A DNA stretch of 64,000 nt from Candidatus Poribacteria bacterium (lineage in GTDB: Bacteria > Poribacteria > WGA-4E > WGA-3G). The position numbers and the translations under genes were made by a program. The stretch spans positions 3,699,687 through 3,763,686 of the forward strand of contig CBDBPM010000002.1 in NCBI GenBank assembly GCA_965208735.1, given 5' to 3'. The notes beneath the pieces were generated by a model, which worked only from the letters and a program-made list of their open reading frames with translations, was not told the origin of the DNA and ran no database searches. Of this stretch, positions 6,730 through 52,841 are shown piece after piece (positions within the stretch are counted from its first letter, which is position 1; each line of letters begins with the position of its first letter).

Positions 6730-6912
6730 ATGAGCAAAGACGTGTTTGATGGATTCAATGTGAACATATTTCTTGATGAGGACGGCGATTACTTGGCACA
6801 TTTTGTTGAGATGCCCAATGTATCGGCATTTTCAGATACACCCGAAGGGGTATTAACGGAACTCGCGATCGCTTGGAAAGGTGTAAAAGAAATAGGACTT
6901 ACGCATTTTTGA
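6730..6912 (+). CDS. Small HicB-like (UPF0150 fold) antitoxin-like protein, orphan
   Basis: The 60 aa sequence FNVNIFLDEDGDYLAHFVEMPNVSAFSDTPEGVLTELAIAWKGVKE matches the HicB N-terminal/UPF0150 pattern (edDGgyva.vpdlPGc.sqGdT.EEAl.n..eAi). No HicA-like partner ORF is adjacent. Confidence 0.4.
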   Translation: MSKDVFDGFNVNIFLDEDGDYLAHFVEMPNVSAFSDTPEGVLTELAIAWKGVKEIGLTHF

Positions 6913-7487: not shown

Positions 7488-9311
7488 ATGAAAAACGTCC
7501 TAATTATTGCCTTCTTGCTAATCTCAATTCTGTTTTCTCTAAGTGGATTTGCTCAGAATTACATGAAGTGGGGACTACCTGAACATGCTATACTTCGTCT
7601 TGGGAAAGGGCAAATTTACGACCTAAAGCATTCGCCAAATGGCAACCTGATTGCAGTAGCAACCTCTATAGGCGTTTGGATATATGATGCTCATTCTGGC
7701 AAAGAAATTAGATTGTTTCAAAAGCACGGTTATGAGGTTCATTCAGTGGCATTCTCGCCAAATGGCAAAATGCTGGCAAGTTCCGGTTCCGATGGTATCC
7801 ATCTTTGGGATCCCTCCACCGGTCAACATTTAACTACTCTTAAAGATAATGCACCGAGCGGTACAAAGAATTTGGTATTTTTTTCCCCTGATGGACGAAC
7901 ACTGGTTAGTACAAGGGATAAAATAATTAGATTTTGGGATGTGGTTAATAAGACTGTTTCTAAAACCCTTACAGGGCATACATGGCAAATTTTGTCGCTC
8001 GCTGTTTCACCAAACGGAAAAACTGTAGTTAGTGGATCTTCGATCATTGGTGAGAAACCACAGAGTAATGCCCTGCGTTGGTGGGATGTTGAAACTGGAA
8101 GAATGTTGTTTTTTTCAACAGCCATGGATTCAGCAGTTACTGCTCTGGCGTTTTCGCCTAATGGAAAGATACTAGCTTGCGCGAATAGCTTGTCGGAAAA
8201 TCCAAACATCTATTTATTTGATGGTGTTAGCGGTGAGATATTAAGGACGCTGCCCGAACTCCATGGTAAAACTATAAGCTTAGAATTTTCTCCTGATGGC
8301 AAAATGCTAGCCAGTACTGGATGGGATCGTACTATCCGCCTTTGGGATCCACACACTGGGCACCATATCCATACGTTTAGAGGATACGTAGGGTGGTTAT
8401 CGTTTTCGCCTGATGGTAAAACCCTTGTGAGTGGTGAGGATGGCGCAATCCGGTTTTGGGATACATCAACGAAACAACAGCGTTTTAGTGTCTCTGGTCA
8501 CTGGAATAGTATAGGTGCGTTGACGTTTTCACCCGATAGTAAAATGCTAATCAGTGGTGGTTATGAAACTTCCATGATTCAGAAATGGGATGTATCTACG
8601 GGCGAACTCATGTCTACCTTAACACTAAATAGAGAACTTATTTTGGCTTTTAATGCGAAACGCGGTTTATGTGCTAGCGTAAACATTGATGCAGATCCTA
8701 ATAAAATTCATATCCGTGACATTGATACCGGTCAACTTCGCGCTTCAATGGACTATCAGTTTCTCTCACCACGAATTTCAGGTGTTTCACCACTAACATT
8801 TTCACACGATGGAGAGACAATAATTGTTTTGAACGAACAAGAAATTGGTGAAAAACAGGTGTTGGAATTTTGGGATTTATGGCTTCATTCCGTTAACTTT
8901 CAGTTTGTGCCACATGAAAATGAAATTTTCAAATATTCTTATTCTACATATACTGAGGTTACGGCTCTTGCCTCTTCACCAGATAACACGCTTCTCGCTA
9001 CCGCTGTACGAGGTCGGGTTGCCCTTTGGAAGTTTGGCACCGACGAACTTATTCTGTCTTATCCTGAATTTGGTGGCCTTAGTTGCTATGCGTTGGCATT
9101 TTCCCCTGATAGCAAAATTCTTGCTGTCGGAGACTCTTTGGATATCCGTTTAATTGAAGTGGATACAGGAAATCTTATAACAACCGTGTCCAAACATAAC
9201 AACAGGGTTAAAGCGTTGGCATTTTCCGCTGATGGCAAAATTCTTGCGAGTGGAAGTCAGGACGGTACGATTTTGGTGTGGGACTTAGATAAAGTTATGA
9301 AGAGCCGGTAG
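7488..9311 (+). CDS. Secreted WD40-repeat beta-propeller protein
   Basis: N-terminal signal peptide (MKNVLIIAFLLISILFSLSGFAQ), followed by about 14 WD40 units that each carry an FSPDGK.LASG..D..I..WD motif. Confidence 0.8.
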   Translation: MKNVLIIAFLLISILFSLSGFAQNYMKWGLPEHAILRLGKGQIYDLKHSPNGNLIAVATSIGVWIYDAHSGKEIRLFQKHGYEVHSVAFSPNGKMLASSGSDGIHLWDPSTGQHLTTLKDNAPSGTKNLVFFSPDGRTLVSTRDKIIRFWDVVNKTVSKTLTGHTWQILSLAVSPNGKTVVSGSSIIGEKPQSNALRWWDVETGRMLFFSTAMDSAVTALAFSPNGKILACANSLSENPNIYLFDGVSGEILRTLPELHGKTISLEFSPDGKMLASTGWDRTIRLWDPHTGHHIHTFRGYVGWLSFSPDGKTLVSGEDGAIRFWDTSTKQQRFSVSGHWNSIGALTFSPDSKMLISGGYETSMIQKWDVSTGELMSTLTLNRELILAFNAKRGLCASVNIDADPNKIHIRDIDTGQLRASMDYQFLSPRISGVSPLTFSHDGETIIVLNEQEIGEKQVLEFWDLWLHSVNFQFVPHENEIFKYSYSTYTEVTALASSPDNTLLATAVRGRVALWKFGTDELILSYPEFGGLSCYALAFSPDSKILAVGDSLDIRLIEVDTGNLITTVSKHNNRVKALAFSADGKILASGSQDGTILVWDLDKVMKSR

Positions 9312-11696: not shown

Positions 11697-12029
11697 ATGG
11701 CAACGATTACGACGGAAGGCGTACGCCATGTCGCAAACTTGGCACGCCTTGAATTTAACGATGAAGAGACAGAACACTTTACCGAGCAACTTGCCCGAAT
11801 TCTGGAATATATCGGGAAGTTGAATGAACTTGAGACAGATGATGTGCCACCGACATCGCACATCCATCCGCACCAAGTTTTCATTATGGGTTCGCAAGAG
11901 GGGGCAGCGCATGTCGCCAAACCAGATGTTGTCAAGCCTTCCTATCCCCGCGAAGAAGTCCTCTCTAACGCACCTGAACCTGAAGAAGGATACTTCGGCG
12001 TTCCCAGAGTAGTTGATAGGGATTCTTAA
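11697..12029 (+). CDS. gatC: Asp-tRNA(Asn)/Glu-tRNA(Gln) amidotransferase subunit C
   Basis: MATITTEGVRHVANLARLEFNDEETEHFTEQLARILEYIGKLNELETDDVPPTSH is the canonical GatC sequence. RBS TAAGGAG. Confidence 0.85.
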   Translation: MATITTEGVRHVANLARLEFNDEETEHFTEQLARILEYIGKLNELETDDVPPTSHIHPHQVFIMGSQEGAAHVAKPDVVKPSYPREEVLSNAPEPEEGYFGVPRVVDRDS

Positions 12030-12173
12030 GCGAAGCTCAGGCAACGCGCCGAACCGCAAAGAAAATTAAAAAAAGTTACAAAGAACGATAGTCCGTAATG
12101 AAATGGAGGACGGGTTACGTAAAGGCGGTTGAAGTAACCAACCCGCCTGACCGAACCGCAAGGAAAGTTAAAA

Positions 12174-13649
12174 ATGCTTTATGAATTGACGGCACATGCT
12201 TTACACGAGAAACTCAAAGCGCGTGAGATTACCGCTGTGGAACTCACAGAATCTGTCTATGCGCGTATTACTGAAGTGGAGTCGCATGTCAAAGGCTATT
12301 TGACGCTAACGAAAGATTTGGCTTTGGAGCAAGCGAATCGTGCCGACGCGGGATTTCAAAACGGAGATGAGATGCCGCCGCTCGCGGGTATCCCAATCGC
12401 GATTAAAGATGTGATATGCACCAAAGGTGTACGGACAACCTGCGGTTCTAAAATCCTCGAAAACTTTGTGCCTCCATACAATGCGACCGTCATGGCGAAA
12501 CTCTACGAGCAGGGCGTTGTCATGGTCGGTAAAACGAATATGGACGAATTCGCGATGGGGTCCTCTACCGAAAACTCGGCGTATCAAATTACCCATAACC
12601 CATGGAATCTGGACACTATTCCTGGCGGTTCAAGTGGCGGTTCTGCCGCAGTTGTATCAGCGGATACGGCAATCTGTTCACTCGGTTCAGACACGGGTGG
12701 TTCGATTCGACAACCCGCAGCACTCTGTGGGGTCGTCGGGATGAAACCGACGTATGGGCGCGTCTCTCGCTATGGACTCGTCGCTTTTGCCTCTTCACTC
12801 GACCAGATCGGTCCGTTTACCAAAGATGTTACCGATTGTGCTTTGTTGCTCAATGCTATCTGCGGCAGCGACGCGATGGATGCTACCTCCGTTGATGTCC
12901 CCGTGCCTGATTTTACGCAGGGTCTCATTAACGACGTAAATGGTTTAAGAATCGGTGTGCCGAAAGAGTATTCCACACCGGCATTGGACACAGAAATTGC
13001 AGATAGTGTTCAAAATGCGACTGCTGTTCTTGAAAGCCTCGGGGCGACCGTTGAAGAAATATCCTTGCCACATACGGAGTATGCAATCGCGACGTATTAC
13101 ATCATTGCCCCCGCTGAAGCGAGCGCGAATCTCGCAAGATACGACGGAGTCCGTTATGGATACCGCAACGAAAACCCTGAAGATCTAATCGGGATGTACA
13201 AAAAGACGCGAAGCGAAGGGTTTGGCGAAGAAGTAAAACGTCGAATTATGCTCGGTACTTTTGCCCTGAGCGCCGGTTATCAAGATGCTTATTATAAAAA
13301 AGCACAGAAGGCACGGACGCTGATCAAATCTGATTTTGATGCCGCATTTGAGAAGGTTGATGTTATCGCAACACCTACCTCGCCGACACCAGCGTTCAAA
13401 ATAGGAGAGCGGATTGCGGATCCGTTGCAGATGTATCTTTCTGATGTTATGACAACGCCTGCAAGTCACGCCGGGTTGCCCGGTATCTCTGTGCCGTGCG
13501 GCTTCGTCCAAAGCGGGCTGCCGGTCGGATTGCAACTCCTCGGCGCGCCTTTCGCAGAAGAGAAAGTGCTGCAAGTTGCCTATACTTTTGAACAGAATAC
13601 CGAACATCATCGGCAGAAACCACAAATCCAGATGAATGGAGCTGTTTGA
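12174..13649 (+). CDS. gatA: Glutamyl-tRNA(Gln) amidotransferase subunit A
   Basis: Amidase signature ([13 protein letters not shown], Ser-cisSer-Lys region). GatA-like over its full length. Confidence 0.9.
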
Positions 13650-17285: not shown

Positions 17286-19271
17286 TCACCACGGCTGCCT
17301 ATATGACGGCGAATTCGCGAAACGTTCCATCCCCAATTCCAAATCAATCTCTGTGTTCGGTGGCAGCTGGACACGGAGATACATGCCATTGACCGGAACT
17401 GTTCGCACTGCCTGACCGATGTTAGCGCGTGCTGAAGTGAAGTTGTGCTCACCCATCGCACCTGCTTGCACAATAACTTCCCTTGATGCTGTTTTATTCA
17501 GATTGACAAGCTGCAGTCCGGTTGTATTCGCTGTCATTTTTGTAACCAATGCACCAACATCTGGTGGAAGTCCCGGTCGCTGCTGTTGTGCGTCAAAGTG
17601 CCGCAGCCGTGTCACGAACATGCCTCCGTTGTAATGCGGTAGCGGAGTGCCACAAGTAAGTTGAACCAACCCTTCACACGTAATTGGGTTACGTCGCTGG
17701 AAATAGGCATCTCCATAACTGGCTGGATCTTCATCGTCGTTATCCATAAAATTCAGACGTGCCTCGACTTGCGAGAGGTTGTGATTGAGGATCGCTTCTG
17801 GGTATTCAGGATATTCACCCCGCATATATGCCAACCATGCACCGTCATGTCCACCGCTATCCTTCGTATGATGCCAAGCGTTGATGTCAAATTTCGATCC
17901 CGTCTTTTTAGCGATGTTCTCTGCGCGTTTTTGATCTGTCTGATCCATTGACAGTGCCCATAGATGCGCAACATCCGAGGCGTGCATCGGCATGAATTCA
18001 AACCAGCCGTCCACCTGCAAAGCCGTGCCACCCTCGTTTGTAATTGGATACTGCAACCACGAACCCGGAACATAGTTAACCTTACCCGGATCGCCATACT
18101 TCTGTGGGACGTAGAGTTGATCGTTCTGCTCAATCCCTCTCTCAATTAAAACGTCAATCTGTGAGCGCGGAAAATCAAGATACGCCAAATCTCGCCAGAG
18201 CAACGCCGCATTCTGTCCAGCGATACTTACTGCTTGTCCGACGCTATGCCATCCATGCGGCCAACTCCACCCATAGTATGAACCATACCACTTACCGTCT
18301 ATATGTTCACCAATCTTACCTGAAAGTCCGACATTGTCTGGAACGATTCCGCCGTTTTCCGCTGTACGTTCTATCCACGCCTCAACATATTCCCGTACCC
18401 ACGCTTTATATTTATCTTCACCGGTTAGGAGATAAGCATTGGCAGCAAGCGTCGTGGCGGCGAGGTTGACGACTGTATCTCCGACACCTTGCCGTTCCCT
18501 GATAAGCTGCCCCATGCGTATGCGCAGTGCCTCATTTTCCCGCACCGCTTCATGGCTCGTGCCGCCCGGTATATCGTAGAACGGCATATTATAGCCGTCC
18601 CAGGGCCAATATGGGTGTCCAGCAAAAGCCCAAAACGCCGGTCCTTTACTACCGTTCATAGCGCACTTGATGATTTTGTGCTGCGGGTCGTAGTTCAGTG
18701 CATCAGGGTCTTCGTTCATAAAAAACCCCGCAAACCGTTTTGCCCGTTCAATGTGCTTAGGGTTTGACGGGTCCGCCATGCAGAGCATATAAAAAAGGTA
18801 GTTTCCCTCGCTTTGATGAAACCAGTCATAACCGGGTTGATACTCCTTCACGACCATCGGGTAACCGTGACCGGTACCATATCGCGCCATATCATTTGTG
18901 ATGACATCGAATTCCGTATCTGCGTCAACCAAGAATTGCGTATCACCACCGAGCATATAAAAGAGGGGCCAGTTATGAAAACTTTCATAAGCATCGTCCA
19001 ATCCGTCAATACTCTGAAAGTCTGGATTCGTTGGCCAGAGCAGTGTGCCATCTGGACGCGTATATTTCTGTAAGACTTCTGGTCCTGCTGCGTTCATTTT
19101 ATCAATGAGTTCGCGTTCAAGGACTGCCCACGTCGGTGGTGTTTGGATGTGCGTCTGCGCTTCAATCGTTGGAAACACGATTTTTACCCCTGACATTTGG
19201 ATTGCAATTGGTTGCAGTATATCATATTTTCGTGTATTCGTGAAACTTATGTTTTTGGGCACCAGAGACAT
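17286..19271 (-). CDS. Large hypothetical protein, possibly a polysaccharide-active (alpha/alpha)6-type enzyme
   Basis: Uninterrupted 661 aa ORF with uniform codon usage. Aromatic- and Trp-rich (WSWPHGWHS, DGWFEFMPMH), as in glycoside hydrolase or lyase folds. No family identified with confidence. Confidence 0.55.
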   Translation of the reverse strand: MSLVPKNISFTNTRKYDILQPIAIQMSGVKIVFPTIEAQTHIQTPPTWAVLERELIDKMNAAGPEVLQKYTRPDGTLLWPTNPDFQSIDGLDDAYESFHNWPLFYMLGGDTQFLVDADTEFDVITNDMARYGTGHGYPMVVKEYQPGYDWFHQSEGNYLFYMLCMADPSNPKHIERAKRFAGFFMNEDPDALNYDPQHKIIKCAMNGSKGPAFWAFAGHPYWPWDGYNMPFYDIPGGTSHEAVRENEALRIRMGQLIRERQGVGDTVVNLAATTLAANAYLLTGEDKYKAWVREYVEAWIERTAENGGIVPDNVGLSGKIGEHIDGKWYGSYYGWSWPHGWHSVGQAVSIAGQNAALLWRDLAYLDFPRSQIDVLIERGIEQNDQLYVPQKYGDPGKVNYVPGSWLQYPITNEGGTALQVDGWFEFMPMHASDVAHLWALSMDQTDQKRAENIAKKTGSKFDINAWHHTKDSGGHDGAWLAYMRGEYPEYPEAILNHNLSQVEARLNFMDNDDEDPASYGDAYFQRRNPITCEGLVQLTCGTPLPHYNGGMFVTRLRHFDAQQQRPGLPPDVGALVTKMTANTTGLQLVNLNKTASREVIVQAGAMGEHNFTSARANIGQAVRTVPVNGMYLRVQLPPNTEIDLELGMERFANSPSYRQPW

Positions 19272-19584
19272 TCAATTGTCCATTTTTCGATCGAATTTTC
19301 ACCCCGGGCCCGGTAGGTTCGGTTTTTGCGGCGTACACGCCCAGATGCGAAGTGCATCGCGGTGTACTCACCCAAATTTTGCCCACACGCGGAGACCAAA
19401 TTTGTCTTTGCTTTACATTTGCGACTTGCATTCCAACCGAACCGGGTTCTAAGAGAAAATCTTGACCACTTCAAATCCTCTTGAATCCCATCTCAACCCC
19501 AGGTCCGGTAGGTTCGGTTTCCTAACCGAACCGGCTCCTTCAAAAAAAGATGTGAAACCCAATAATTTCTTAAAATTGAATGCC
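19265..19584. repeat. Composite intergenic repeat carrying CCGGTAGGTTCGGTTTCCTAACCGAACCGG hairpin units and a conserved 3' module (family shared with 28.7-29.2 kb and 46.8 kb)
   Basis: TCCATTTTTCGATCGAAT...CCGGTAGGTTCGGTTTT at the left end; GCATTCCAACCGAACCGG and CCGGCTCCTTCAAAAAAAGATGTGAAACCCAATAATTTCTTAAAATTGAATGC at the right end are near-identical to 29118-29174. Confidence 0.6.
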
Positions 19585-19710: not shown

Positions 19711-20583
19711 GTGCCAACTGATTTGCCATTAGGGATGGACATCTTAGAAATGACAGATAGTGAACTTTATGAAATAGGGATTAAAATCCTTACTGCTAAA
19801 CTCGGTGACTCTGAGGTGCCACGGTTTATTCGGCAGTGCAATCCCGGTAAAGGCGATTACTCTGTTGATCGACATAAATTGCTGGCAAATCAGCCCGGCA
19901 TTGACACCATTGTCAAGCGGATCCAAGATAGACGTGCGGCAAGGGAAGCAGAAGAACGCTCGCGTGCTAAAAGGTTTGCTATGCCTCAAAGTGAAATCCA
20001 AAAAATGACAGATATTGAGATTTCTGAAATCGGAAATCAGGTTCTTATCAATAAACTTGGCACAGCTGGATTGATAGGGTTTATCAGGATTTGCCAGGAA
20101 CTTAACGGTGGTTATCCTCGGGGACTGATTGAAAGTAGTGAAGAGGCTAAAGAATACATTAAACTTTACACTGCAAGCTTGATCTTAAATCCTAAAATAG
20201 TCGAAGACTACATTAAACGCGGCAATGCCTATAGTTACATTGGTGAGCATGACAAAGCCATTGCTGACTATGATCAGGCGATAAAACTCAAACCTAATTA
20301 TGCCAAAGCCTATTACAATCGCGGCAACGCTTATCGTGATAAAGTTGATTTTGACCAAGCTATCGCCGACTATACCAGAGCAATAGAACTCGAGCCCGAT
20401 TATGTTGATGCCTATTACAATCGCGGTAAACTTTACGATGAGATAAATGCGTATAACAAAGCCATTGAAGACTTTAGCACAGTGATAAAACTTGACCCTG
20501 AACATGCCGATGCATATAACTATCGTACTACGGTTTACCGCGATAAAGGCGAGTATGACAAAGCTAGGGAATCAGTCAGATAA
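19711..20583 (+). CDS. TPR-repeat protein with a duplicated N-terminal about 70 aa module
   Basis: The N-terminus has two copies of an (L/I)xxMTDxE(L/I)xEIGxx(I/V)LxxKLG...FIRx module, followed by at least five TPR units (AYYNRGNAYRDKVDFDQAIADYTRAIELEPDY...). GTG or ATG (19735) start. Confidence 0.7.
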   Translation: MPTDLPLGMDILEMTDSELYEIGIKILTAKLGDSEVPRFIRQCNPGKGDYSVDRHKLLANQPGIDTIVKRIQDRRAAREAEERSRAKRFAMPQSEIQKMTDIEISEIGNQVLINKLGTAGLIGFIRICQELNGGYPRGLIESSEEAKEYIKLYTASLILNPKIVEDYIKRGNAYSYIGEHDKAIADYDQAIKLKPNYAKAYYNRGNAYRDKVDFDQAIADYTRAIELEPDYVDAYYNRGKLYDEINAYNKAIEDFSTVIKLDPEHADAYNYRTTVYRDKGEYDKARESVR

Positions 20584-20610
20584 AGAAATTCTTCTTGTGA
20601 AGGAGGGCGA

Positions 20611-22239
20611 ATGAACGATAAATCCGATTCTCAAAATGAACTTAATAGGGTTTTGGAAAAGATTCAAGAAATAGTAAAAAAGTCCGCTGATGGAGATTAC
20701 ATCTATCGGGGTGAACCAGAACTGCATCAAGAACATCCTTATCATGGAAAGGTTTCCTCAAGCCTGTATCGCTCGTCATTGACTGATTCTGTAATGGAAG
20801 AGGGTATAGAAGAGTACCGTAAAATTATTGAATCTCAGATTGGGAACAGGGAACGGTGGACTTTGGAGTTGGCGAAAGAATATTTATATGAAACTGGCAG
20901 CGAAACAATCAGCGATTTTGAAATCTTAGCGCGACTCCAACACCATGGTGGTAAGACCAATCTTATAGATTTCACAACTGACTACCTGATTGCTCTCTTT
21001 TTTGCCTGTGATAGATCCTATCATAAAGATGGCAGGGTTATCTTACAAAAAAGAGAATCGGAAGATTACCAAGCGGAAACACCTTCAGAAGCAATTAAAC
21101 GGGTGGAATCCCAAAAAAGTGTACTGCTCCGGTCGCCAAAAGGTTTTATCAATCCAGATGTTGTGGTGATTATTCCAAAGGAACTCAAATTTTCCGTGCT
21201 AAACTATCTTGAAAAGCACCACGACATATCTACTAAAAAGATTTACAAAGATATCCACGGATTTGTAAAATGGTTAGGCGGATACATTGATCCTATGGCT
21301 GAATTTGGTAAAGGGGTAATTTGTCAAAATAGGGCGAGTTTAGGAAATAACATGCAGGAGAAATTGAAATGGTATGAAAAAGCTTATGAGCATTTTACCG
21401 AAGCATTGAGACTAAAATCAGATTTCACCGAAGTTTATATTCATCGCGGAGCTGTTTTTCGCGATGTTGCCCAGTTTGATCCTGCTCTTAAAGACTTTAA
21501 TACTGCAATAGAAATAGTCCCTGAGGCTGCCGATGCGTATAACGAGCGCGGAAGATGTTATGCTAAAATGGGTGATACTGAAAAAGCACTAAAGGATTTC
21601 AACATTGCTATAGATTTGAATTCAGAGAAGGCAGATTTCTATAACAATCGCGGTATAACTTACAAAGATATGGGTGAAGTTGACTTGGCAATGAAAGATT
21701 ATAATAAAGCAATAGAACTAGATCCAGAATTTCCCGAGGCCTATAACAATCGCGGCATAGTTTATGACGAGAGAGGTGAACTTGACTGTGCTATCAAGGA
21801 CTATAGTAAGGCAATAGAACTCAAATCTTATTATGCGAATGCCTGTAATAATCGCGGTCTGGCCTACCGAGAAAGGGGTGATGTTGATCTTGCCATTGAA
21901 GACTTTAGAAATGCAATTATAGGAGAGTATGATTTTGCTGAAGCTTACTACAATCTCTGTGAAGCCTACCTCATCAAAGGTGATTTTGAGAGTGCTTATA
22001 CTGACTTGGCTACACTAGCAATGCTAATGTCGTCTCCCTATGCGTATTTTGCTTGCGGTATAATCGGGTTGTGCCAACAGCAATGGGAAAAGGCTAGATC
22101 AGACTTTACTGTTGCTACGGATAACGGATTGGATATCGTCGCTTTATTTTATAAAGATTATGGAGGCATTGAAGACTTTGAGCAGAAGAATGATCTTCAG
22201 TTACCGGAAGACATCGCGACGATGTTGAGGCAGCAATAA
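20611..22239 (+). CDS. FRG-domain protein fused to a C-terminal TPR array
   Basis: N-terminal YIYRGEPELHQEHPYHGKVSSSLYRS ... LARLQHHGGKTNLIDFTTDYLIALFFAC fits the FRG-domain (PF08867) pattern: FRG ... L.PS.fR ... QHyG.PTrLlDwT...A.yFA. The C-terminal half is at least seven TPR units plus a tail shared with the next gene. Confidence 0.7.
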   Translation: MNDKSDSQNELNRVLEKIQEIVKKSADGDYIYRGEPELHQEHPYHGKVSSSLYRSSLTDSVMEEGIEEYRKIIESQIGNRERWTLELAKEYLYETGSETISDFEILARLQHHGGKTNLIDFTTDYLIALFFACDRSYHKDGRVILQKRESEDYQAETPSEAIKRVESQKSVLLRSPKGFINPDVVVIIPKELKFSVLNYLEKHHDISTKKIYKDIHGFVKWLGGYIDPMAEFGKGVICQNRASLGNNMQEKLKWYEKAYEHFTEALRLKSDFTEVYIHRGAVFRDVAQFDPALKDFNTAIEIVPEAADAYNERGRCYAKMGDTEKALKDFNIAIDLNSEKADFYNNRGITYKDMGEVDLAMKDYNKAIELDPEFPEAYNNRGIVYDERGELDCAIKDYSKAIELKSYYANACNNRGLAYRERGDVDLAIEDFRNAIIGEYDFAEAYYNLCEAYLIKGDFESAYTDLATLAMLMSSPYAYFACGIIGLCQQQWEKARSDFTVATDNGLDIVALFYKDYGGIEDFEQKNDLQLPEDIATMLRQQ

Positions 22240-22271
22240 CTCTAAAACCCATCGAATAGGGGTATAGTGAA

Positions 22272-23105
22272 GTGGTAACGCGTAAACCTAATGATACCGA
22301 GTCATATTACAATCGTGGCATCGCTTACTACGAAAAACGTGAGTATGATAAAGCCATCGCAGACTTTAGCGAGGTCATAAAACGCGCACCCAATCATGTT
22401 GATGCTTATTACAATCGCGGCAATGCTTATTGGGATAAAGTTGATTTTGACGAAGCCATTGCAGACTATACCAAGGCGATAGAACTCAAGCCCGATTATG
22501 CCGAAGCCTATTACAAGCGCGGTAGAATTTATGCTGAGGACGATGAGTATCACAAAGCCATTGACGACTTTGGTATGACGATAAAGTTTGACCCTGAACA
22601 TTCCAACGCGCATGGTTATCGTGCTGACCTTTACCGTGATATAGGCGAATACGACGAAGCCGTTGCGGGGTATAACATGGAAATGGAACTCCGCCCCGGT
22701 GCCCCCGAGGTCTATTATAACCGTGGAAACACTTACGCCGCAAAAGGTGAATATAACAACGCCATTGAAGACTTTAGCAAAGCGATAGAACTAAATCCAG
22801 AGTTTGCAGAGGTTTATGTCAAACGCACTTTAACTTATATCCGAATAGGCAAATTTGATCGCGCCATTCAAGATTATGACAAGGTGCTGGATCTCAAACC
22901 AAAATCTATTGCATTCTACGCGGCTCGTGGTATAATATCTCTACAAATAGAAGAATGGGAAAGTGCTAAATTAGACCTGATTTTTGCCAGAAATTTAAGA
23001 GTGAATATCATCAATATATTCCATACAATGTACGAAAACGTTGCTGACTTTGAAGAAAAAAATAATGTGCAGTTGCCGAAAGACATCACGGCAATGCTGA
23101 CGTAA
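22272..23105 (+). CDS. TPR-repeat protein, paralog of 19711-20583 and of the C-terminal half of 20611-22239
   Basis: TPR units with 80-90% nucleotide identity to stretches of the first TPR gene. The C-terminal tail (NVADFEEKNNVQLPKDITAMLT) is paralogous to the tail of the FRG-TPR protein. GTG start with a weak RBS. Confidence 0.65.
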   Translation: MVTRKPNDTESYYNRGIAYYEKREYDKAIADFSEVIKRAPNHVDAYYNRGNAYWDKVDFDEAIADYTKAIELKPDYAEAYYKRGRIYAEDDEYHKAIDDFGMTIKFDPEHSNAHGYRADLYRDIGEYDEAVAGYNMEMELRPGAPEVYYNRGNTYAAKGEYNNAIEDFSKAIELNPEFAEVYVKRTLTYIRIGKFDRAIQDYDKVLDLKPKSIAFYAARGIISLQIEEWESAKLDLIFARNLRVNIINIFHTMYENVADFEEKNNVQLPKDITAMLT

Positions 23106-23160: not shown

Positions 23161-24363
23161 ATGCTGGCACAAACTATTTCCGATATCATAGAATGCAAGC
23201 AAACAATTGAAAATCATAGGTTTGACGAAACCGCGACTAAACAGTATATTGTTCTCCCTATTCTCAGATCCTTAGATTGGCAAGATGACAATTTATATAC
23301 GTTAGAGGTGTTTCCAGAAAAAAGAGTTGGCGATGGAAAAGTTGACTATGCTTTGCAACATGATCAAACCTCTTTGGTATTTGTTGAGTGTAAACGTTGG
23401 GGCACAAGCATTGAGAAATATCAGGCACAAATTTGCCAGTACGCTTTTCAAGCAGGAATAGAAATAGCCGTTATCACCAACGGAAAAATATGGGACTTCT
23501 ACCTACCTAATCTAACAAGTACACCTGACAGGAGGATTATACCATGGGAAGATAGGATTTTCTGTTCCATTGATCTTGAAATACAGCAGGAAGCAGCATC
23601 CGACTTCCAAAAATATCTCTCCAAGTCTAATGTTGAACAGGGGAAAGCAAAGGTGGAAGCGCGAGAAGCGTTTCAACCCCGATTGTCCGATACTCCTTTA
23701 CCACGGCAGAATTATGGATTACCGATTCTGAAAGCCTTAGAAAGTCTTGGAGGTTCTGGAGCGACCCACCGAGTATTAGAATTGGTCTATCAATTCATGG
23801 ATTCGGCTAATGAGCTGCGAGAAATAGATAAGTCTCTTCGATCAGACGGTCAGTTTTATTGGGATAATCGGACCCAGGACATGCGACGAGAATTAATCAG
23901 TAAAGGTCTAATGAAAGATGATTCTCCGTGGGGTATTTGGGAAATCTCTAATGCTGGGCTTGAATACCTCTGTGATATGGATGTCCAAAAATCACCACGA
24001 TCCCCAACCCTGAATACTTCTTCGCACGAACATGGGGCTGAACCTTCTGATACTCCGCTTCCACGAACGAGCTATGCTTTACCTATTTTAAAAGCCTTAA
24101 TCCAGCTTGGTGGCTCTGCAATCACCAGTGAGGCACTCAAAACAGTTCGCCAATTAATGGAAAACGAATTGAAACCAATAGACCTATCACAACGTCCAGC
24201 CGGACATTTGTATTGGGAAAACCGTGTTCACGATATGCGACGAGAATTGATAAATAGGGGTCTAATGGTAGCCAATTCTCCGCGCGGAATTTGGGAAATT
24301 TCTGATGCCGGGCGTGAGTATCTTATTAATCTTAATAGTAAGGAAAATTTAGACAGTGGATAA
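23161..24363 (+). CDS. Restriction-endonuclease-like protein: N-terminal HsdR_N-type PD-(D/E)xK nuclease domain plus two tandem Mrr_N-like winged-helix domains
   Basis: GDGKVDYALQHDQTSLVFVECKRW...IAVITNGKIWDFY fits the HSDR_N pattern (rpDYvl...vvEaK...iiTNG..w.fy). The C-terminal half is two repeats of about 110 aa (DTPLPR..Y.LPILKAL..LGGS.....L..V.Q.M.....E...R..G..YW.NR..DMRRELI..GLM...SP.GIWEIS.AG.EYL) that match the Mrr N-terminal wHTH pattern. RBS GGGGAG. Confidence 0.7.
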   Translation: MLAQTISDIIECKQTIENHRFDETATKQYIVLPILRSLDWQDDNLYTLEVFPEKRVGDGKVDYALQHDQTSLVFVECKRWGTSIEKYQAQICQYAFQAGIEIAVITNGKIWDFYLPNLTSTPDRRIIPWEDRIFCSIDLEIQQEAASDFQKYLSKSNVEQGKAKVEAREAFQPRLSDTPLPRQNYGLPILKALESLGGSGATHRVLELVYQFMDSANELREIDKSLRSDGQFYWDNRTQDMRRELISKGLMKDDSPWGIWEISNAGLEYLCDMDVQKSPRSPTLNTSSHEHGAEPSDTPLPRTSYALPILKALIQLGGSAITSEALKTVRQLMENELKPIDLSQRPAGHLYWENRVHDMRRELINRGLMVANSPRGIWEISDAGREYLINLNSKENLDSG

Positions 24364-25180
24364 TACAACTAAACCTGTTATAGCAGCTCCAACAGCGCGT
24401 GCGGAGTCCGATCTTGACGGTGCGAGAAACATCCTTGCGGATGCCCTTTACGAGATGGGGTATGATGGCACGTTAGTAGACACTCTGATAGAAAGAAATG
24501 TCATTGATTTCAGTACTGTTGACTACACAAGCCATATCAAGTACCAACTTAGAGAACGTTATGGAGAATCTATTTTATGGGATGATAGTCTTGAAGATGC
24601 TGTTGCCGTTGAGGTTTTAACAGTTTCTTTAACAGGTGAACTGGGAAAAAACTGGAGTGCCTCTAAGAACGACACTTTTCAAGAACGTATCCGAGATGTG
24701 ATCGGAAAATTAATTGAAAAGTTAGGGCTAAAGGTAGTTTTGCGCTATGATTTAGTAAAGAATGGCACCTTATCCGAAGAATTGGAAAGTGTTAAACAAC
24801 ATTTGACAGTTGATTATGGAGAATTTAACTCTGATCTCCCGTATGTTGATCTTGTAATTTATACCGCCGAAAATTCGCGTGTTATTGCTGTAATCTCGTG
24901 CATAATTAATTTGAAACCCCGAATTTTTGACACAGTTTATTGGAGACTCAAATTTCGGGAAGACGAAGATAAAGCCTCTATCAAATTCTATCTCGTCACA
25001 ACTGATATAGACGAAACTCTGAAGATTGCAGACTTACCGGAAAAAAGACGAGCCATTTTAGAGGCAGAACTTGATGGCATCTATGTACTAACAGCATCGG
25101 AATTTCAGCAAAGCGATAAGGTTAAACTGTTTGAACATTTTATTGAGGATTTTAAACAAGCCATAGAAGAGAGTCAATAA
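24356..25180 (+). CDS. Hypothetical protein, translationally coupled to the nuclease gene
   Basis: Overlaps the upstream stop by 8 nt. 274 aa, acidic, no recognisable family. The segment PYVDLVIYTAENSRVIAVISCIINLK could be a degenerate D...(D/E)xK motif, but this is speculative. Confidence 0.55.
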   Translation: MDNTTKPVIAAPTARAESDLDGARNILADALYEMGYDGTLVDTLIERNVIDFSTVDYTSHIKYQLRERYGESILWDDSLEDAVAVEVLTVSLTGELGKNWSASKNDTFQERIRDVIGKLIEKLGLKVVLRYDLVKNGTLSEELESVKQHLTVDYGEFNSDLPYVDLVIYTAENSRVIAVISCIINLKPRIFDTVYWRLKFREDEDKASIKFYLVTTDIDETLKIADLPEKRRAILEAELDGIYVLTASEFQQSDKVKLFEHFIEDFKQAIEESQ

Positions 25181-28591: not shown

Positions 28592-28696
28592 ATCTCTGTC
28601 TCCTTATTTTTAGGTATCTATGAAGATATTGTATCAAATTTACAATTTCAAGTCAAGTTTTTCATGCATATTGCATACGCGACAGAGTTATTCAGT

Positions 28697-29174
28697 TCTC
28701 CATTTTTCGATCGAATCTTCACCACCAGAGCCGGTAGGTGCGGTTTTGCGGCGTACTCATAGGGGTCAATTTAAGAAAAAATAACCGTCGTTGCCACCAG
28801 AAACGGTAGGCACCATTTGAAACTACACTGGATTTTACGCAGAAACCTTGGATACTTCTAAACTGCTCTTTAGTCCCGTAGGGACGGTATCTATGTAGTA
28901 CGTGTATGAACCTAAACCCTCAGCCCCGTAGGGGCGGCATCTGTATAATAGCGAAGGTTCTATAGATGTCACCCCTACGGGGTTCAAGACTTCTGGCAAT
29001 ATGTGTCTACAGAGATATCGTCCCTACGGGACTAAAAAACATGTCTGTTTCTCTTAAATTGACACCTATGGTGCGGTTTCGCGGCGTACTCGCCCAAATG
29101 CGACCTGCATTCCAACCGCACCGGCTCCTTTAAAAAAAGACGTGAAATCCAATATTTTCTTAAAATTGAATGCT
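28697..29174. repeat. Mosaic palindromic repeat element (MITE/REP-like) with four periodic GTA/TAC-loop hairpins
   Basis: The left arm is shared with 19265- and 46767-. The centre has hairpins A 28871-28886 AGTCCCGTAGGGACGG, B 28921-28936 AGCCCCGTAGGGGCGG, B' 28969-28984 and A' 29018-29032 (the reverse complement of A), spaced about 50 bp apart. The right arm 29118-29174 is near-identical to 19530-19584. Confidence 0.7.
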
Positions 29175-29858: not shown

Positions 29859-29876
29859 AGGATTGCTGGTTACTTC

Positions 29877-29932
29877 GTAGGAGCGAGCTGTGCTCGCGAT
29901 CTTTGTAGGAGCGAGCTATGCTCGCGATCTTT
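29877..29932. terminator. Two tandem 28 bp hairpin units between convergent genes (candidate bidirectional terminators)
   Basis: GTAGGAGCGAGCTGTGCTCGCGATCTTT repeated twice (29877-29904 and 29905-29932, one mismatch). Each unit is a GCGAGC/GCTCGC stem followed by TCTTT. Confidence 0.45.
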
Positions 29933-36478: not shown

Positions 36479-36637
36479 TAGTTTAGTTAGCCTCCTTGCT
36501 ATATGATATTGCTATTATATCACACGTGCAAAAATACACACAAACTTTTTTTAGTGCCTTAACGCTTCTTATAGGAGCGACTTCCCGGTCGCGCCCTCAC
36601 TGACTGCTGATGGTTGAAGGCTAACCGCCACTCTGAT

Positions 36638-36666: not shown

Positions 36667-37032
36667 GAAAGGAGTTAGGACTTACGCATTTTCTCTTAAA
36701 GTCCCCCTGATAAGGGGGATTTAGGAGGTTAAATACAACAAAATATACCCGTTCTCTGTTCAATTTGCGTAAGCCCTAGGAGTATTAGAAACATCTGCTG
36801 CCTCGGTATATCTGCTGCCAAAAGGGAATTAGAATGGAACTCAAAAGCGTTTTGTCTTGATCGGTTATTGTAGTCGGTGTTCTCATCGGTATATTCGTTA
36901 TACTTTCATTACGCCGGTGGAACATTGATTACCCACGACCAACGCCGCGGACAGTTGAAATCCCAAACGCAATTCGACAGAGATTCGCAGAGCCGTCCGA
37001 AAAGCCTTAGTTTCATCAGAAAGGAAACCGTA

Positions 37033-44534: not shown

Positions 44535-45308
44535 ATGTCAGATATAGGAAAATTCTTTCAAGAAAACGGATACTATTTCGCTAAGGGGGTCTATTCACCC
44601 GAAGAGATCAAAGCGATGGAAGGCGACTTTGATCGCGTGGTGGATCAGCTCCTTAAAAGCGATGAAAATGTCAACGCACGCTGGGGTGGCAGATTAATGG
44701 ATGCCCTTGACGGCGGCGAATCCGTTATTATCCATACGCACAATATCCAGAGTTTTTCTGGGGTCTGGATGCAGGCATTCGTGCAGGAGAAGTTTCTGGA
44801 TACCACCGAAGCCATCATCGGACCGGATATTATGCTTCACCATTCCAAACTTTTCTGTAAACCGCCAGAGAAAGGTGCACCTTTCCCAATGCACCAAGAT
44901 TGGCAATACTTCCCCTCTGTCAAAGACAGCATGATAGCTGCTATCATTTATGTATCAGAAGCCACCGATGAGATGGGGTGTGTTCGGGTCTACCCTGGTT
45001 CCCACAAGCAGCTCGGACGCACTGACGGTATGATGGGAAGTGGCGCGAATGTTGAAATTACGGAAAAATATCCGATTGAGGACGCGACTGTTTTGGAAGC
45101 GGAACCCGGAGATGTGCTTTTCTTTAGTTACTTCACCCTACACGGCTCGATGCCGAACCATTCCAACAAGACGCGGAAAAGCGTTCTCGTTCAAATGCAT
45201 GCCGGAGACGATGAGATTGAATCCGAAAATCGCCACACCAACGTCCAATTGGTACTGCGTGGCTGGAACCATCTCGCAACCCGTTCTTCTGTGGGTGGGA
45301 TTAAATAA
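44535..45308 (+). CDS. Phytanoyl-CoA dioxygenase (PhyH)-family Fe(II)/2-oxoglutarate oxygenase
   Basis: HxD...H facial triad candidates (PMHQDWQYF ... TLHGSMPNHS) and PhyH-like overall length and pattern. Confidence 0.65.
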   Translation: MSDIGKFFQENGYYFAKGVYSPEEIKAMEGDFDRVVDQLLKSDENVNARWGGRLMDALDGGESVIIHTHNIQSFSGVWMQAFVQEKFLDTTEAIIGPDIMLHHSKLFCKPPEKGAPFPMHQDWQYFPSVKDSMIAAIIYVSEATDEMGCVRVYPGSHKQLGRTDGMMGSGANVEITEKYPIEDATVLEAEPGDVLFFSYFTLHGSMPNHSNKTRKSVLVQMHAGDDEIESENRHTNVQLVLRGWNHLATRSSVGGIK

Positions 45309-45393
45309 ATCAAGGAGCATTTTGGGCTACTTGGTTATTGGGTGGGTCTAACTGTTTTTAAGGCTTTAACCGTTGAAGCGTCTTCCACATTTT

Positions 45394-45693
45394 TTAAGGA
45401 ATCCCGGGTTGATAGTTAAGCAAAATCAAGGGGCTGCGTAAGTCCTATTAGAAAAATGAACATAGCCCGTAATGAAATGGAGGAGCGGATCTACGGACTC
45501 TCGCTGCGAGGCAAACTTCAAATTCCAAACCCGCTCTGACCGAACCGCTTTTAAGGAACCCTGGGTTGATAGTTAAGCAAATCACTGGGTTGCGTAAGTC
45601 CTATTAGAAAAACGAAACGTAGCCCGTAATGAAATGGAGGGCGGCACTACGGAATAGCACTTCAAATTCCTAACCCGCTCTGACCGAACCGCA
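45394..45693. repeat. Tandem duplication of an about 150 bp intergenic element that ends in an SD-bearing leader (GACCGAACCGCAAGGAAAATTAAAA-ATG)
   Basis: Unit 1 is 45394-45548 and unit 2 is 45551-45693, with about 85% identity. Both contain TGCGTAAGTCCTATTAGAAAAA and TAGCCCGTAATGAAATGGAGG. Single diverged copies lie at 12085-12173 and about 52750-52840. Confidence 0.7.
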
Positions 45694-45708
45694 AGGAAAA
45701 TTAAAATT

Positions 45709-46704
45709 ATGATTAGAGTTGCAAAAATTAGTATGGCGCATGTCCATGCTGGTGGCTACGCCCGAAAACTTCACGAAAACCCCGAAACCGAACTCGTCGC
45801 TGTTTGGGACGAAGAAGAATACGGCGGAAAAGAGGCTGCGGAGCAATACGAAGTTCCCTTCTACACAGATCTTGATGAAATCCTCAGTCGCGACGATGTA
45901 GACGCTGTCGCTGTTGACGCGATTACGTCTGACCATCCGCGTGTCATGATTGCTGCCGCTGAAGCCGGTAAACACATCTTCACTGAGAAGGCACTTGCGA
46001 TTACCGTCGCTGAGTGCGATCCGATTATTGATGCCGTTGAGAAAGCCGGTGTAAAATTCATGATTTCGCTGCCTTCGCGTGCGAACCCTGAAATCCTGTT
46101 TGCGAAAAAGGCAATCGACGATGGACTGCTGGGGGACATCACATTCGGTAGAGGACGGATTGCACATTCCGCCGCGCTGGATAGCTGGTTCAGCGGCACG
46201 AGCGCATGGTTTGCGGATCCCGAACGCGCAGGCGGTGGGGCACTCTTCGATTTAGGATGCCACCGTGTTGATGTTATTCGATGGTTAATGGGTGAACCTA
46301 AGAGTGCTATCGCCAAAATTAACAACTTTACAGGCAATTTCCCGATTGACGATAACAGCGTCTCGGTTGTTGAATTTGCAAACAAAGCACTCGGCGTGAT
46401 TGATGTCGCGTGGACGCACCGTTCAGGTCCGAACATGCTTGAGATTTACGGCACAGAGGGCTCGTTTGCCGCCGGACACGGCGAAATGCATTTTGAAACC
46501 CGCAAACTCTCTGATGAAGAAAAAGCAGAATACATCGCCAACGCACCGGCTGCACCCCCCGAACCGATGCAACAGTGGATCAACGCTATTCTTCGCGACG
46601 AACCGATGACGATTACGATTCAAGATGGACGGAACCTCACAGAGTTGATGCAGGCAGTCTATATGTCGGCTGAACAGGGACAGTCAATTGATTTTCCGCT
46701 CTAA
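45709..46704 (+). CDS. Gfo/Idh/MocA family oxidoreductase
   Basis: Rossmann N-terminus, HIFTEKA, typical C-terminal alpha/beta domain. The ATG is 8 nt after the AAGGAAA supplied by the repeat. Confidence 0.8.
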   Translation: MIRVAKISMAHVHAGGYARKLHENPETELVAVWDEEEYGGKEAAEQYEVPFYTDLDEILSRDDVDAVAVDAITSDHPRVMIAAAEAGKHIFTEKALAITVAECDPIIDAVEKAGVKFMISLPSRANPEILFAKKAIDDGLLGDITFGRGRIAHSAALDSWFSGTSAWFADPERAGGGALFDLGCHRVDVIRWLMGEPKSAIAKINNFTGNFPIDDNSVSVVEFANKALGVIDVAWTHRSGPNMLEIYGTEGSFAAGHGEMHFETRKLSDEEKAEYIANAPAAPPEPMQQWINAILRDEPMTITIQDGRNLTELMQAVYMSAEQGQSIDFPL

Positions 46705-46766
46705 GTCGCTATGCTAAACTCACGTTATAGTAAAGTCTATAATTACTTGGACACTGCTGTAGTACA

Positions 46767-46913
46767 GGCGGTAGGTTCGGTTTCCTAACCGTACCATAGG
46801 TGTCAATTTTAGAAAAAATAACCGTCTTGGGACCAGTCCCGGTAGGTTCGGTTTCCTAACCGAACCGGATTCTACGCGGAAACCTTGAAGACTTCAAAGA
46901 CCTCTTGAGTCCC
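46767..46913. repeat. Copy of the GGTAGGTTCGGTTTCCTAACCG hairpin repeat family (left arm of the 28.7 kb element)
   Basis: GGCGGTAGGTTCGGTTTCCTAACCGTACCATAGGTGTCAATTTTAGAAAAAATAACCGTC...CCGGTAGGTTCGGTTTCCTAACCGAACCGG...GAGTCCCGTAGG aligns with 28735-28885. A degenerate inverted partner (ACCTACGG) lies at about 47172. Confidence 0.65.
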
Positions 46914-47299
46914 GTAGGTGTTTTTGCTGTGGTGTTTCCCTTAGGTTGAACGGCGTTGAAAAGGTTGATGTTGATATGCCAAGCACACCTGAAAGTCAAT
47001 AGTTTGCCATATCCATTCAAGAATGGAGTGAAACCCAACTTTACGCTGTCAGGATTCCGGGAACTTCCAAGCCAAAACGTTGGGTTTCACTCGGTTTCTG
47101 GTGAATGTGGTGTACTTAGAGAAAGTTGTGTTTTTCTATGATTTTCAGTGTTTTGATAGCATCCGTTCAACCCAACCTACGGTGTTAGGATTGTTTTTTC
47201 TAAAATCGACCCCTAACCTACTATGTATACTTGTGATGTGCGAAAAGTATAAAAGAAAATAAAGACGAACAGGTTACCAGTATATCTAAGGCAGGAACT

Positions 47300-52679: not shown

Positions 52680-52841
52680 GGTTTTTTACTTCTTCGGTTT
52701 TCGCTCTGTACTTCGCTTCGCTTACGTGCAGGTTTCTGGTGATGCTAAAGACGTAGCCTGCAACAACGGCGCAGGCGGATCTACGGCAAATAACGTTATT
52801 TAACCAATTCACCTAATCGAACCGCAAGGAATAATTAAAAA

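Follow-up and report, generated by a model that had tools for sequence, protein, structure and literature searches.

In a 64,000-nt stretch of a Candidatus Poribacteria genome (contig CBDBPM010000002.1; this whole stretch is referred to as the window), two similar sequence units lie head to tail immediately in front of the start codon of a Gfo/Idh/MocA oxidoreductase gene, and related sequence recurs in the spacer behind gatC and at further sites. The locus raises the question of what kind of element resides there and what it contributes to the gene that follows. In a preliminary description the units had been taken for copies of a dispersed 5' leader element of about 150 bp, which was thought to supply a ribosome binding site (RBS). 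This interpretation proved right in outline, while the size, the tandem duplication and the supply of an RBS need correcting, and the function is one that we infer. The element belongs to an abundant dispersed repeat family which, among the matches listed, is specific to Poribacteria, and, judged from its sequence features, on balance it probably acts as a portable 5' leader and translation-initiation cassette.

The region 45394-45708 of the window comprises two head-to-tail units of 157 nt; in a global alignment of 45394-45550 with 45551-45707, 132 of 157 positions are identical, with a replaced block of 9-12 nt and a 1-nt indel. The 157-nt array was not reported by Tandem Repeats Finder, probably because of the indels, and the alignment was needed to show it. 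Each of the four motifs by which the units had been recognised is present in units 1 and 2 where it had been placed, and unit 2 leads, as described, into AAGGAAAATTAAAATT-ATG: its end, ...GACCGAACCGCAAGGAAAATTAAAATT, is followed by the ATG of the open reading frame (ORF) 45709-46704 (+ strand), the Gfo/Idh/MocA oxidoreductase gene served by this leader, which has matches to three Gfo/Idh/MocA Pfam domains. The gene upstream of the tandem units encodes a PhyH dioxygenase. Unit 1 (45394-45550, + strand) consists of an upstream module (45394-45456) and a first core copy (45457-45548; nhmmer match 45457-45558, E = 1e-10), which lacks the AAGG...A-run tail because the duplication junction comes after ...CCGAACCGC. 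Unit 2 (45551-45708, + strand) combines the upstream module with a complete core element (45612-45708; nhmmer E = 3e-20), in which a TAG tag at 45620, the hairpin P1 at 45622-45642, the motif CCGCAAGG at 45689-45696 and the tail AAAATTAAAATT precede the ATG at 45709. Alignment of the five window copies demonstrated that the size of about 150 bp was wrong for the dispersed element, as the shared part is the 3' ~95 nt. The 5' ~60 nt of each 157-nt unit (TTTTAAGGAAYCCYGGGTTGATAGTTAAGCAAA...TTGCGTAAGTCCTATTAGAAAAA) are not dispersed; they represent this gene's own leader and are kept at the orthologous loci L073 and L040 (L numbers denote fetched loci), each of which carries one unit. Therefore, the tandem duplication is a local event in the lineage of the window.

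Five copies of the core element were detected in the 64-kb window with the nhmmer profile, and approximate matching gave four window matches to TAGCCCGTAATGAAATGGAGG at up to three mismatches (0.00 expected) and eight to CGAACCGCAAGGAA at up to two mismatches (0.51 expected). The copy reported for the gatC-gatA spacer is real: a complete element occupies 12083-12173 (+ strand; nhmmer E = 4e-18) and ends in AAGGAAAGTTAAAA-ATG, with the ATG at 12174. gatC extends from 11697 to 12029, and the downstream gene (12174-13649), which matches the Pfam Amidase family only, is interpreted as gatA because it comes after gatC. The same arrangement is present in L064 and L079, and in the latter (OX639973.1) the spacer is nearly identical to that of the window. 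The spacer also contains an isolated 3' tail copy (GCCGAACCGCAAAGAAAATTAAAAAAA; 12047-12074, + strand), located 102 nt upstream of the full copy's tail, which is absent from the preliminary description. The copy described near 52750-52840 exists as well (52754-52840, + strand; nhmmer E = 4.5e-9), but it carries a different 5' hairpin module, termed type B (TAGCCTGCAACAACGGCGCAGGC), in place of P1, followed by a normal 3' half; its neighbours are convergent genes, no gene starts behind it, and it is kept in the orthologue L070. The fifth copy had been overlooked. It is a complete element at 956-1047 on the - strand (nhmmer E = 8e-22), located inside the NAD kinase ORF (488-1498, - strand), where it is read in frame as a 30-residue stretch between two Pfam domains; a degenerate second 3' tail copy (CTGACCGAATCGGAAGAAGAAATT; 1061-1084, - strand), 102 nt upstream of the real tail, is also translated. 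In addition, a tail-only look-alike, AAGGAAAATTTAGA, is found at 24340-24353 (+ strand), where AAGG is followed 12 nt further on by the GTG start of ORF 24356-25180. The stretch 24340-24358, AAGGAAAATTTAGACA-GTG, thus has the same AAGG-N12-start geometry as the element tail, and the look-alike may be a remnant of the element.

The copies share a common anatomy. The 5' edge is formed by a short A-rich stretch (AAAAC) and a (G)TAG tag, of which the A and the G are at least 90% conserved. It is followed by P1 (GCCC-GUA-AU-GAA-AU-GGA-GGGC), with a conserved 3x3 internal loop, by a linker, GGCGGAUNU, and by a long irregular helix, P2, whose 5' strand reads ACGG, AAGGAA or AAGAA depending on the subfamily and whose 3' strand reads CCGA, UUCCU or UUUAA. 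Between the P2 strands lies a variable centre of ~25 nt, usually with a small hairpin of its own, and the element closes with the invariant tail, CCGCAAGG + WAWAWT + an A-run (AAAAA), which adjoins the start codon. Beyond what had been described, the leader contains a covarying hairpin. In the 79 non-redundant copies used for pairing statistics, P1 is 98% paired; all four outer pairs are changed on both sides (e.g. C-G in 58 copies, U-A in 19), the inner pair is U-A in 67 and C-G in 12 copies without a single mismatch, and the GUA/GGA internal loop and the GNA triloop are nearly invariant. When the P1 partners were slid by 1-3 columns, pairing dropped from 79% to 30-45%. P2 is less regular (66% paired); at its pair 44-83, 35 copies have C-G and 25 have A-U. 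Two P2 pairs contain 17-24 G-U cells, which would be C-A mismatches on the other strand and thus point to the sense strand. RNAalifold, applied to the first alignment, returned P1 and a CC-GCAA-GG mini-hairpin only. An extra flanking pair for the CCGCAAGG mini-hairpin was considered and rejected, as the flanks co-vary as A..A and U..U and do not pair.

The 5' part of the element is modular. In 21 copies, including that at 52754-52840 of the window, a TAGCCUGC-AACAACGGC-GCAGGC hairpin takes the place of P1, and this type-B stem shows compensatory changes of its own (GUCCC/GGGAC, GCAG/CUGC). An extra module, GUUUUUGCUUGGGUGUUUCUUCAG, directly follows GGAGGG in 24 copies, at times with further nested material. 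The optional module of 24 nt, GTTTTTGCTTGGGTGTTTCTTCAG, occupies a fixed site right after P1 in 24 of 211 copies and is polymorphic between orthologous leaders (L040 5780-5900, L003, L024, L027, L028, L037, L080 3823-3993, L106 and L070 6890-7070); with this module a U-run follows P1, which gives it a terminator-like look, and some copies hold 60-150 nt nested inside. In a short form, P1 is joined directly to an AGGAG RBS (L004, L078).

The family extends far beyond the window. One genome per species was scanned for the 17-mer CCGTAATGAAATGGAGG, which occurs at at least 118 loci, and these 118 were fetched. Among the matches listed, 102 of the 118 loci stem from 40 named Candidatus Poribacteria species genomes and two from unclassified metagenome-assembled genomes (MAGs) in which the full element is present; the other 14 (Clostridia, Rhizobium, Bacteroidota and others) contain the 17-mer alone and are chance matches. 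An nhmmer profile built from 80 standard copies and run on the 958 kb of fetched DNA, including the 64-kb window, identified 211 copies, 92 of them without the exact 17-mer. Extrapolation from fetched loci, which are biased toward copies, suggests a few hundred copies per 5-6.7 Mb genome. In the accessible literature on repeats, intergenic and palindromic elements of Poribacteria, we found no description of this element. A comparison with Rfam or riboswitch models had been proposed earlier; Rfam 15 was run and matched no family, as nothing in the window reached the gathering score and, at a permissive E-value, the lone match within 45300-45800 was a chance match to sar (E = 1.3).

A feature that stands out is the position of the copies relative to genes. 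Of 180 evaluable copies, from about 40 Poribacteria genomes, 92 are followed by the start of a long ORF 10-17 nt past AAGG, in 73 cases at exactly +12; an ATG at exactly +12 is present in 71 copies, and a GTG or TTG is found at the canonical distance in 7 of the 92 host copies. The element is always in sense orientation to the gene that follows. This bears out the earlier proposal of a dispersed leader that ends at start codons on the same strand; it had been conceded there that copies elsewhere might not precede start codons, or that the similarity might be confined to three loci, and neither was found to be the case. The downstream genes have no common pathway: 65 non-orthologous genes match 98 Pfam families and include ABC transporters, nuo subunits, epimerases, xylose-isomerase-like proteins and Gfo/Idh/MocA proteins. 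Several copies are intercistronic, as between gatC and gatA or at a nuo-type junction in L045. That the tail might simply be the usual RBS of the organism was rejected, since in the remaining genes of the window GGAGG, AGGAG or AAGGA is found at 6-8 nt and the element tail is lacking.

The same placement is found outside the host genomes. The 33.9-kb phage contig IMGVR_UViG_3300012932_000188 (L138 and L130), which encodes a large terminase, a portal, a head-maturation protease and a major head protein (PHROGs) and presumably represents a Poribacteria phage, contains at least seven full-length copies (nhmmer E = 1e-14 to 8e-19). These are located at 1293-1381, 4971-5064, 6563-6654, 7446-7538 and 9680-9772 of L130 and at 1275-1365 (- strand) and 4086-4179 (- strand) of L138, the two loci covering positions 11587-33869 of the contig. 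Each is oriented like the ORF behind it, whose ATG or GTG marks its end (a GTG/TTG-type start in one), and a new compensatory P1 variant, GCGC/GCGC, occurs among them. Matches in other viral contigs were chance matches to one motif. The phage copies show that the element moves between replicons and that being placed at start codons is a property of the element itself.

How might such a cassette function? The element would be transcribed as the 5' untranslated region or the intercistronic spacer of the downstream gene. Its AAGG(A) would then pair with the 3' end of the 16S rRNA in a Shine-Dalgarno role, a pairing that rests on established knowledge of the anti-Shine-Dalgarno sequence, while the A/U-rich 12 nt might leave the start codon unpaired and the structured upstream domain might insulate the start region from its surroundings. 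Predicted accessibility is consistent with this: the mean unpaired probability at positions -16 to -1 is 0.66 for element-bearing genes and 0.51 for other Shine-Dalgarno genes, and at -20 to +3 the predicted means are 0.61 and 0.51 (Mann-Whitney p = 8e-7). At the RNA level, P1 may in addition contribute to mRNA stability or processing or be bound by a factor. Upstream of the Gfo/Idh/MocA gene, TGCGTAAGTCCTA followed by TATTAG is located at 45435-45447 (+ strand), about 15 nt 5' of the TAG tag of unit 1, with a second copy at 45591-45603 in unit 2. Judged from its sequence, this TGCGTAAGTCC + TATTAG arrangement is promoter-like, and with a promoter at this distance P1 would come to lie near the 5' end of the mRNA, a position at which transcripts are known to be stabilised by hairpins.

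Several findings weigh against the cassette. About one third of the copies (59 of 180, classed as other) have no start codon at the canonical distance; many of these are tandem upstream units, carry a tail duplication before the ATG or precede ORFs cut by the end of the locus, and the copy at 52754, between convergent genes, also lacks such a start codon. The fold of the whole element is not unusually stable, with a mean z of -0.3 relative to dinucleotide shuffles. In the element AAGG is located at -16, while the AAGG of 567 other Poribacteria genes is most frequent at -13/-12 and their GGAG at -11, i.e. the AAGG-ATG spacing is 3-4 nt longer than in those genes; moreover, AAGGT is present in 43% of the tails, which leaves a Shine-Dalgarno sequence of 4 nt only. 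Thus, of the earlier statement that the element supplies an RBS, AAGG at a fixed distance stands, whereas AAGG lies unusually far from the ATG and its role as an RBS is putative. Finally, CCGCAAGG and positions A2 and T6 of the WAWAWT hexamer are 98-100% conserved, beyond the need of an RBS, and tail conservation of this kind would fit a TAnnnT -10 box located 6 nt from the ATG.

A tail conserved far beyond the need of an RBS would also be expected of selfish DNA, and the turnover of the copies bears on this alternative, which we regard as unlikely. According to this explanation the element would be non-autonomous mobile DNA, P1 with its GTAG-like tag and the tail would be sites for a single-stranded-DNA transposase or recombinase, and the start-codon bias would result from an A-rich, RBS-like target together with loss elsewhere. 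The (G)TAG in front of P1 resembles that of REP elements, and copies in a phage are in line with mobility. Presence or absence and copy number are polymorphic among close relatives, as best seen in NAD kinase, whose orthologues are 78-99% identical and differ in length at one site only, between the two domains. Alleles of 292-296 aa have no element, that of 302 aa has the tail only (TEPQGKLKK), those of 321-339 aa, including the window allele of 336 aa, have one unit, those of 330 and 365 aa have a type-B-like unit, and those of 370-373 aa have two identical 102-nt units (e.g. L122). Element-free alleles already contain CAAGG (Gln-Gly) at the site.

Turnover is also evident in front of genes. 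For 17 element-bearing genes, an orthologue in another fetched genome has no detectable element, and 13 such groups were read. True empty alleles have an ordinary RBS, e.g. GGGACAAGGAGGATTCCCACGAG-ATG or ATAGGAGGTTACTGGAAAGT-ATG of the classical AGGAGG type; in the filled alleles this native RBS is gone and the element extends up to the start codon. One orthologue group combines a GTG start in its two element-free alleles with an ATG start in the filled allele. A tail-like AAGGAAAATTAAAA is still found in about half of the alleles classed as "empty", and these sites are either 5'-deleted remnants or preferred targets. At L067 a tail-like RBS lies behind the gene's own TTGACA-17-TATACT promoter, and in the orthologue L066 elements are located between that promoter and the ATG. 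Tail-like recipient sites or empty alleles (the CAAGG of NAD kinase; L004, L052, L067) would suit a mobile element with an RBS-like target.

The arrangement of neighbouring copies cuts both ways. Among the 211 copies, 29 same-strand pairs were found, ~20 of which are true head-to-tail pairs, the others including single copies split by a nested insert. L044 contains a near-identical five-unit array (1183-1690, period 104 nt), and two-unit arrays have periods of 89, 131 and 102 nt (L023 1915-2096, L025 5642-5865 and the NAD kinase dimer of L122). Near-identical arrays with different periods suggest frequent local amplification. Furthermore, truncation at the 5' end is about three times as common as truncation at the 3' end, and short tail duplications are frequent; tandem arrays, tail duplications and the skew in truncation all favour a selfish element. 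On the other side, only nine head-to-head pairs and one tail-to-tail pair are present. Back-to-back pairs of a type-B and a type-A copy with a conserved 20-nt spacer (CTGTCTTGGGTAAAC...) occur at L089 7520-7714, L103 4448-4641, L075 7800-7991 and L095 6886-7094, and often just one of the two copies faces a gene start. These pairs raised the possibility of a MITE (miniature inverted-repeat transposable element) with inverted ends, which was rejected as the general form because nine head-to-head pairs contrast with ~20 true tandem pairs. Neither the alignments nor a repeat search revealed terminal inverted repeats, the 5' and 3' ends being unrelated, and the flanks contain no constant direct repeat that would indicate a fixed target-site duplication; instead, duplications of the element's own tail, of variable length, are found. 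Orthologous copies are kept across species with P1 and tail conserved and the centre drifting, and the G-U pairs of P2 indicate the sense strand. A target preference alone leaves unexplained why the native Shine-Dalgarno sequence is lost and why the spacing to the ATG is a constant 12 nt. No transposase was seen in association with the copies, no search aimed at one having been made.

Judged from these alignments, spread seems to be 3'-anchored and often tandem, and it seems to favour sites that are already tail-like. It might be speculated that the element is a mobile leader that homes to start codons, copying itself from its 3' end, inserting at sites similar to its tail and overwriting the resident RBS, with P1 as the handle of a global regulator, and that it would thereby rewire translation initiation in several percent of all genes of a bacterial phylum and in its phages; a possible RNA or single-stranded intermediate is suggested because 3' ends are intact and A-rich, 5' ends are truncated and arrays run head to tail. 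As a whole, we consider this extended version of the cassette quite unlikely.

Rather improbable, too, is a leaderless-promoter reading of the tail, in which WAWAWT would be a -10 box, the transcript would start at the A of the ATG, and P1 and P2 would be the 3' end of the transcript from upstream or would serve as a terminator or insulator, the whole element being a cassette of terminator plus promoter. Within the hexamer, conservation reaches 99% both for the A at position 2 and for the T at position 6, which corresponds to the TAnnnT signature; the gap between hexamer and ATG is 6 nt in 76 of 177 tails, 20 tails contain TATAAT itself, and -14 is invariably G. Tail-only alleles without AAGG keep TATAATTAAAAAC-ATG (L112) or AATAATTAAAAAT-ATG (L007), the U-run found after P1 in 24 of 211 copies has a terminator-like shape, and head-to-head pairs leave 20-50 nt for an upstream promoter. 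Scans for sigma-70-type promoters in the window leaders and in 73 upstream flanks gave weak matches, with a -35-like hexamer in 6 of 73 copies. However, position 1 of the hexamer is T in 43% of the tails only, and there is no consistent -35 element. Poribacteria genes are overwhelmingly Shine-Dalgarno-led, and TA[AT]A[AT]T occurs at -12 in 6 of 567 other genes, compared with ~1 at other offsets. Covariation including G-U pairs extends to the CCGC base. GTG or TTG starts at the canonical distance, in the seven host copies mentioned and in one phage copy, also argue against a transcript that begins at the ATG, as do the ~20 genes that start inside the element, upstream of the tail, and hence must be transcribed through it.

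Two further observations concern promoter-like sequence near the element. The 13-mer TGCGTAAGYCCTA occurs in the window at 6893-6905 (- strand), 7411-7423 (+), 36676-36688 (-), 36766-36778 (+), 45435-45447 (+) and 45591-45603 (+), always with an A/T-rich TAnnnn stretch next to it and oriented toward the nearest gene. In the 958 kb of Poribacteria DNA it is present in 24 copies, eight of them directly upstream of the leader element, and it looks like an unusual promoter or operator motif without normal -35 spacing. By contrast, "TTGCAGGCT...", considered as a promoter upstream of several copies, was rejected, as it is the reverse complement of the type-B hairpin.

Very improbable in our view, although compatible with the cassette, is a cis-regulatory RNA regulon, in which P1 would bind a global RNA-binding protein or nuclease that controls translation or decay, phage mRNAs included. 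The loop of P1 is invariant while its stem covaries, and the type-B hairpin, with a conserved loop of its own and compensatory stem changes, sits at the same place; the short form, with P1 directly on the AGGAG RBS, and the occurrence of the element in a phage point in the same direction. A GGA motif in P1 and another in the Shine-Dalgarno sequence are ~62 nt apart, and paired GGA motifs recall dual sites of the CsrA type. On the other hand, the absence of an Rfam match, of a function common to the downstream genes, of a candidate P1-binding protein and of unusual stability in the overall fold all argue against such a regulon.

Apart from acting as a leader, the element is also translated, in NAD kinase and in N-terminal extensions, which had been overlooked. 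Besides NAD kinase, at least four copies are in frame inside long ORFs (L059, L067, L090, L095), and in total the in-frame copies are a minority, with ~6 internal and ~20 N-terminal cases among 180 copies. About 20 downstream ORFs lack a start at the usual place, their frame continuing open into the element; the ATG at -62, in the loop of P1, is the sole canonical in-frame start for CoaBC (L046) and an MT-A70 methylase (L087), among others. In an ABC-transporter ATPase (L031 ~1506-1640; L085 5162-5300; L107 6656-6790; L110 5061-5190), an ATG at -29 in the variable region is preceded by AAAGG in three of four orthologous genomes and is missing in L031, and the three proteins apparently start at this element ATG and begin with MKTHLTEPQGKIKN.... 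Genes that start inside the element show that transcription runs through it, and the L066/L067 pair, with elements between promoter and ATG, points the same way. Stop codons are absent from two of the three frames in 56% and 46% of the copies, and a search for exonised copies at the peptide level yielded at least 13 tiny ORFs, which give no measure of frequency. That the element is a coding sequence was rejected, since translation is tolerated but many copies contain stops.

The window contains other repeats that are distinct from the leader element. A second, REP-like family combines a GTAG tag with a G+C-rich palindrome, TGTAGGAGCGAGCTATGCTCGCGAT; it is present as a 28-nt tandem pair at 29873-29932 of the window and also at ~36570-36600, as well as in L059 (~4230-4260) and L076 (~2450-2480). 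A third dispersed intergenic family, marked by the palindrome CCGGTAGGTTCGGTTTCCTAACCGAACCGG and shared flanking blocks, is found at 19263-19583, 28683-29173, 46762-46898 and 47012-47038, one of these sites being directly downstream of the Gfo/Idh/MocA gene. The long internal repeats at 7743-9267 and 20141-22842 are coding repeats; judged from translated motifs, one set, with ~120-nt spacing, is WD40-type-like, and the other, with 102-nt spacing, is TPR-type-like.

If the cassette reading is true, one interchangeable cassette would provide the translation start signals of several percent of all Poribacteria genes. In one phage it would serve at least seven genes, and the host housekeeping examples would include the gatA-like amidase gene, coaBC and nuo subunits. 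A single motif would then predict start codons, operon sub-structure and possibly co-regulation, and would provide a handle on gene expression in an uncultivated, ecologically important phylum of sponge symbionts. For the annotation of MAGs it is relevant that copies create spurious small ORFs, N-terminal extensions and length-polymorphic proteins, and as a marker of Poribacteria phages the element aids virus-host assignment in sponge viromes. Inside NAD kinase, a non-coding repeat has turned into protein sequence within a housekeeping enzyme. The scale of the family, its copies in a phage, the turnover in a housekeeping enzyme and the unexplained anchoring to start codons are the features most worthy of attention, and a high-copy example of a rare and seldom documented class of repeats, that of the neisserial REP2, could reveal how such repeats spread.

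Several groups of bacterial repeats invite comparison. Correia elements of Neisseria and BOX elements of Streptococcus pneumoniae are small, intergenic, high-copy and partly modular, are co-transcribed with neighbouring genes and can alter their expression (also PMC3184786). Correia elements differ from the Poribacteria element by terminal inverted repeats and a TA target duplication, and neither Correia nor BOX elements are known to end at a fixed distance from a start codon or to replace an RBS. Of the REP, BIME and REPIN sequences, which are associated with RAYT transposases (PMC2817692, PMC3733652, PMC3116915), REPs are 20-40 nt long, G+C-rich, mostly 3' of genes and typically arranged in inverted pairs. 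The Poribacteria element resembles them in its high copy number and in a covarying hairpin with a GTAG-like tag, which here makes up the first fifth of an oriented 95-nt unit; it differs in that its copies are single or in direct tandem, lie 5' of genes and rarely form inverted pairs. By its makeup it is neither a MITE nor a REPIN.

A second group consists of repeats that enter genes. Rickettsia palindromic elements (RPE) and other in-gene repeats of ~100-150 nt are inserted in frame and add a peptide segment (PMC3184786), and Coxiella MITEs are reported to be fused in frame to genes (PMC5896051). The copy in NAD kinase, the at least four further internal cases and the N-terminal extensions are reminiscent of RPE, whereas in Poribacteria in-frame copies are a small minority and the element has no overall palindrome and resides mainly in the 5' leader.

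Closest among the described kinds appear to be REP2 of Neisseria and IR-A/IR-B of Borrelia plasmids, a likeness that is one of features rather than of compared sequences. These repeats are 120-180 nt long, have no inverted termini, possess 5' stem-loops and carry a promoter, an RBS and an ATG (PMC3184786); REP2 and IR-A lie directly upstream of ORFs and are sometimes fused to them (PMC3184786, citing Parkhill 2000, Morelle 2003, Dunn 1994). The Poribacteria element differs in several respects. REP2 has ~26 copies per genome, while five copies were found in the 64-kb window and 211 in the 958 kb of fetched loci; REP2 precedes co-regulated virulence genes, while the genes behind the Poribacteria element are functionally unrelated. 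In contrast to REP2 and IR-A, the element is distributed across a candidate phylum and a phage, and has modular 5' hairpins (A, B), an optional nested module and frequent tandem arrays. As to a promoter inside it, weak sigma-70-type matches and a tail resembling a -10 box were observed. Like REP2 and IR-A, it lacks terminal inverted repeats, starts with a 5' stem-loop, P1, and at its 3' end joins an RBS-like sequence, with a probable role in translation initiation, to a start codon directly in front of the ORF.

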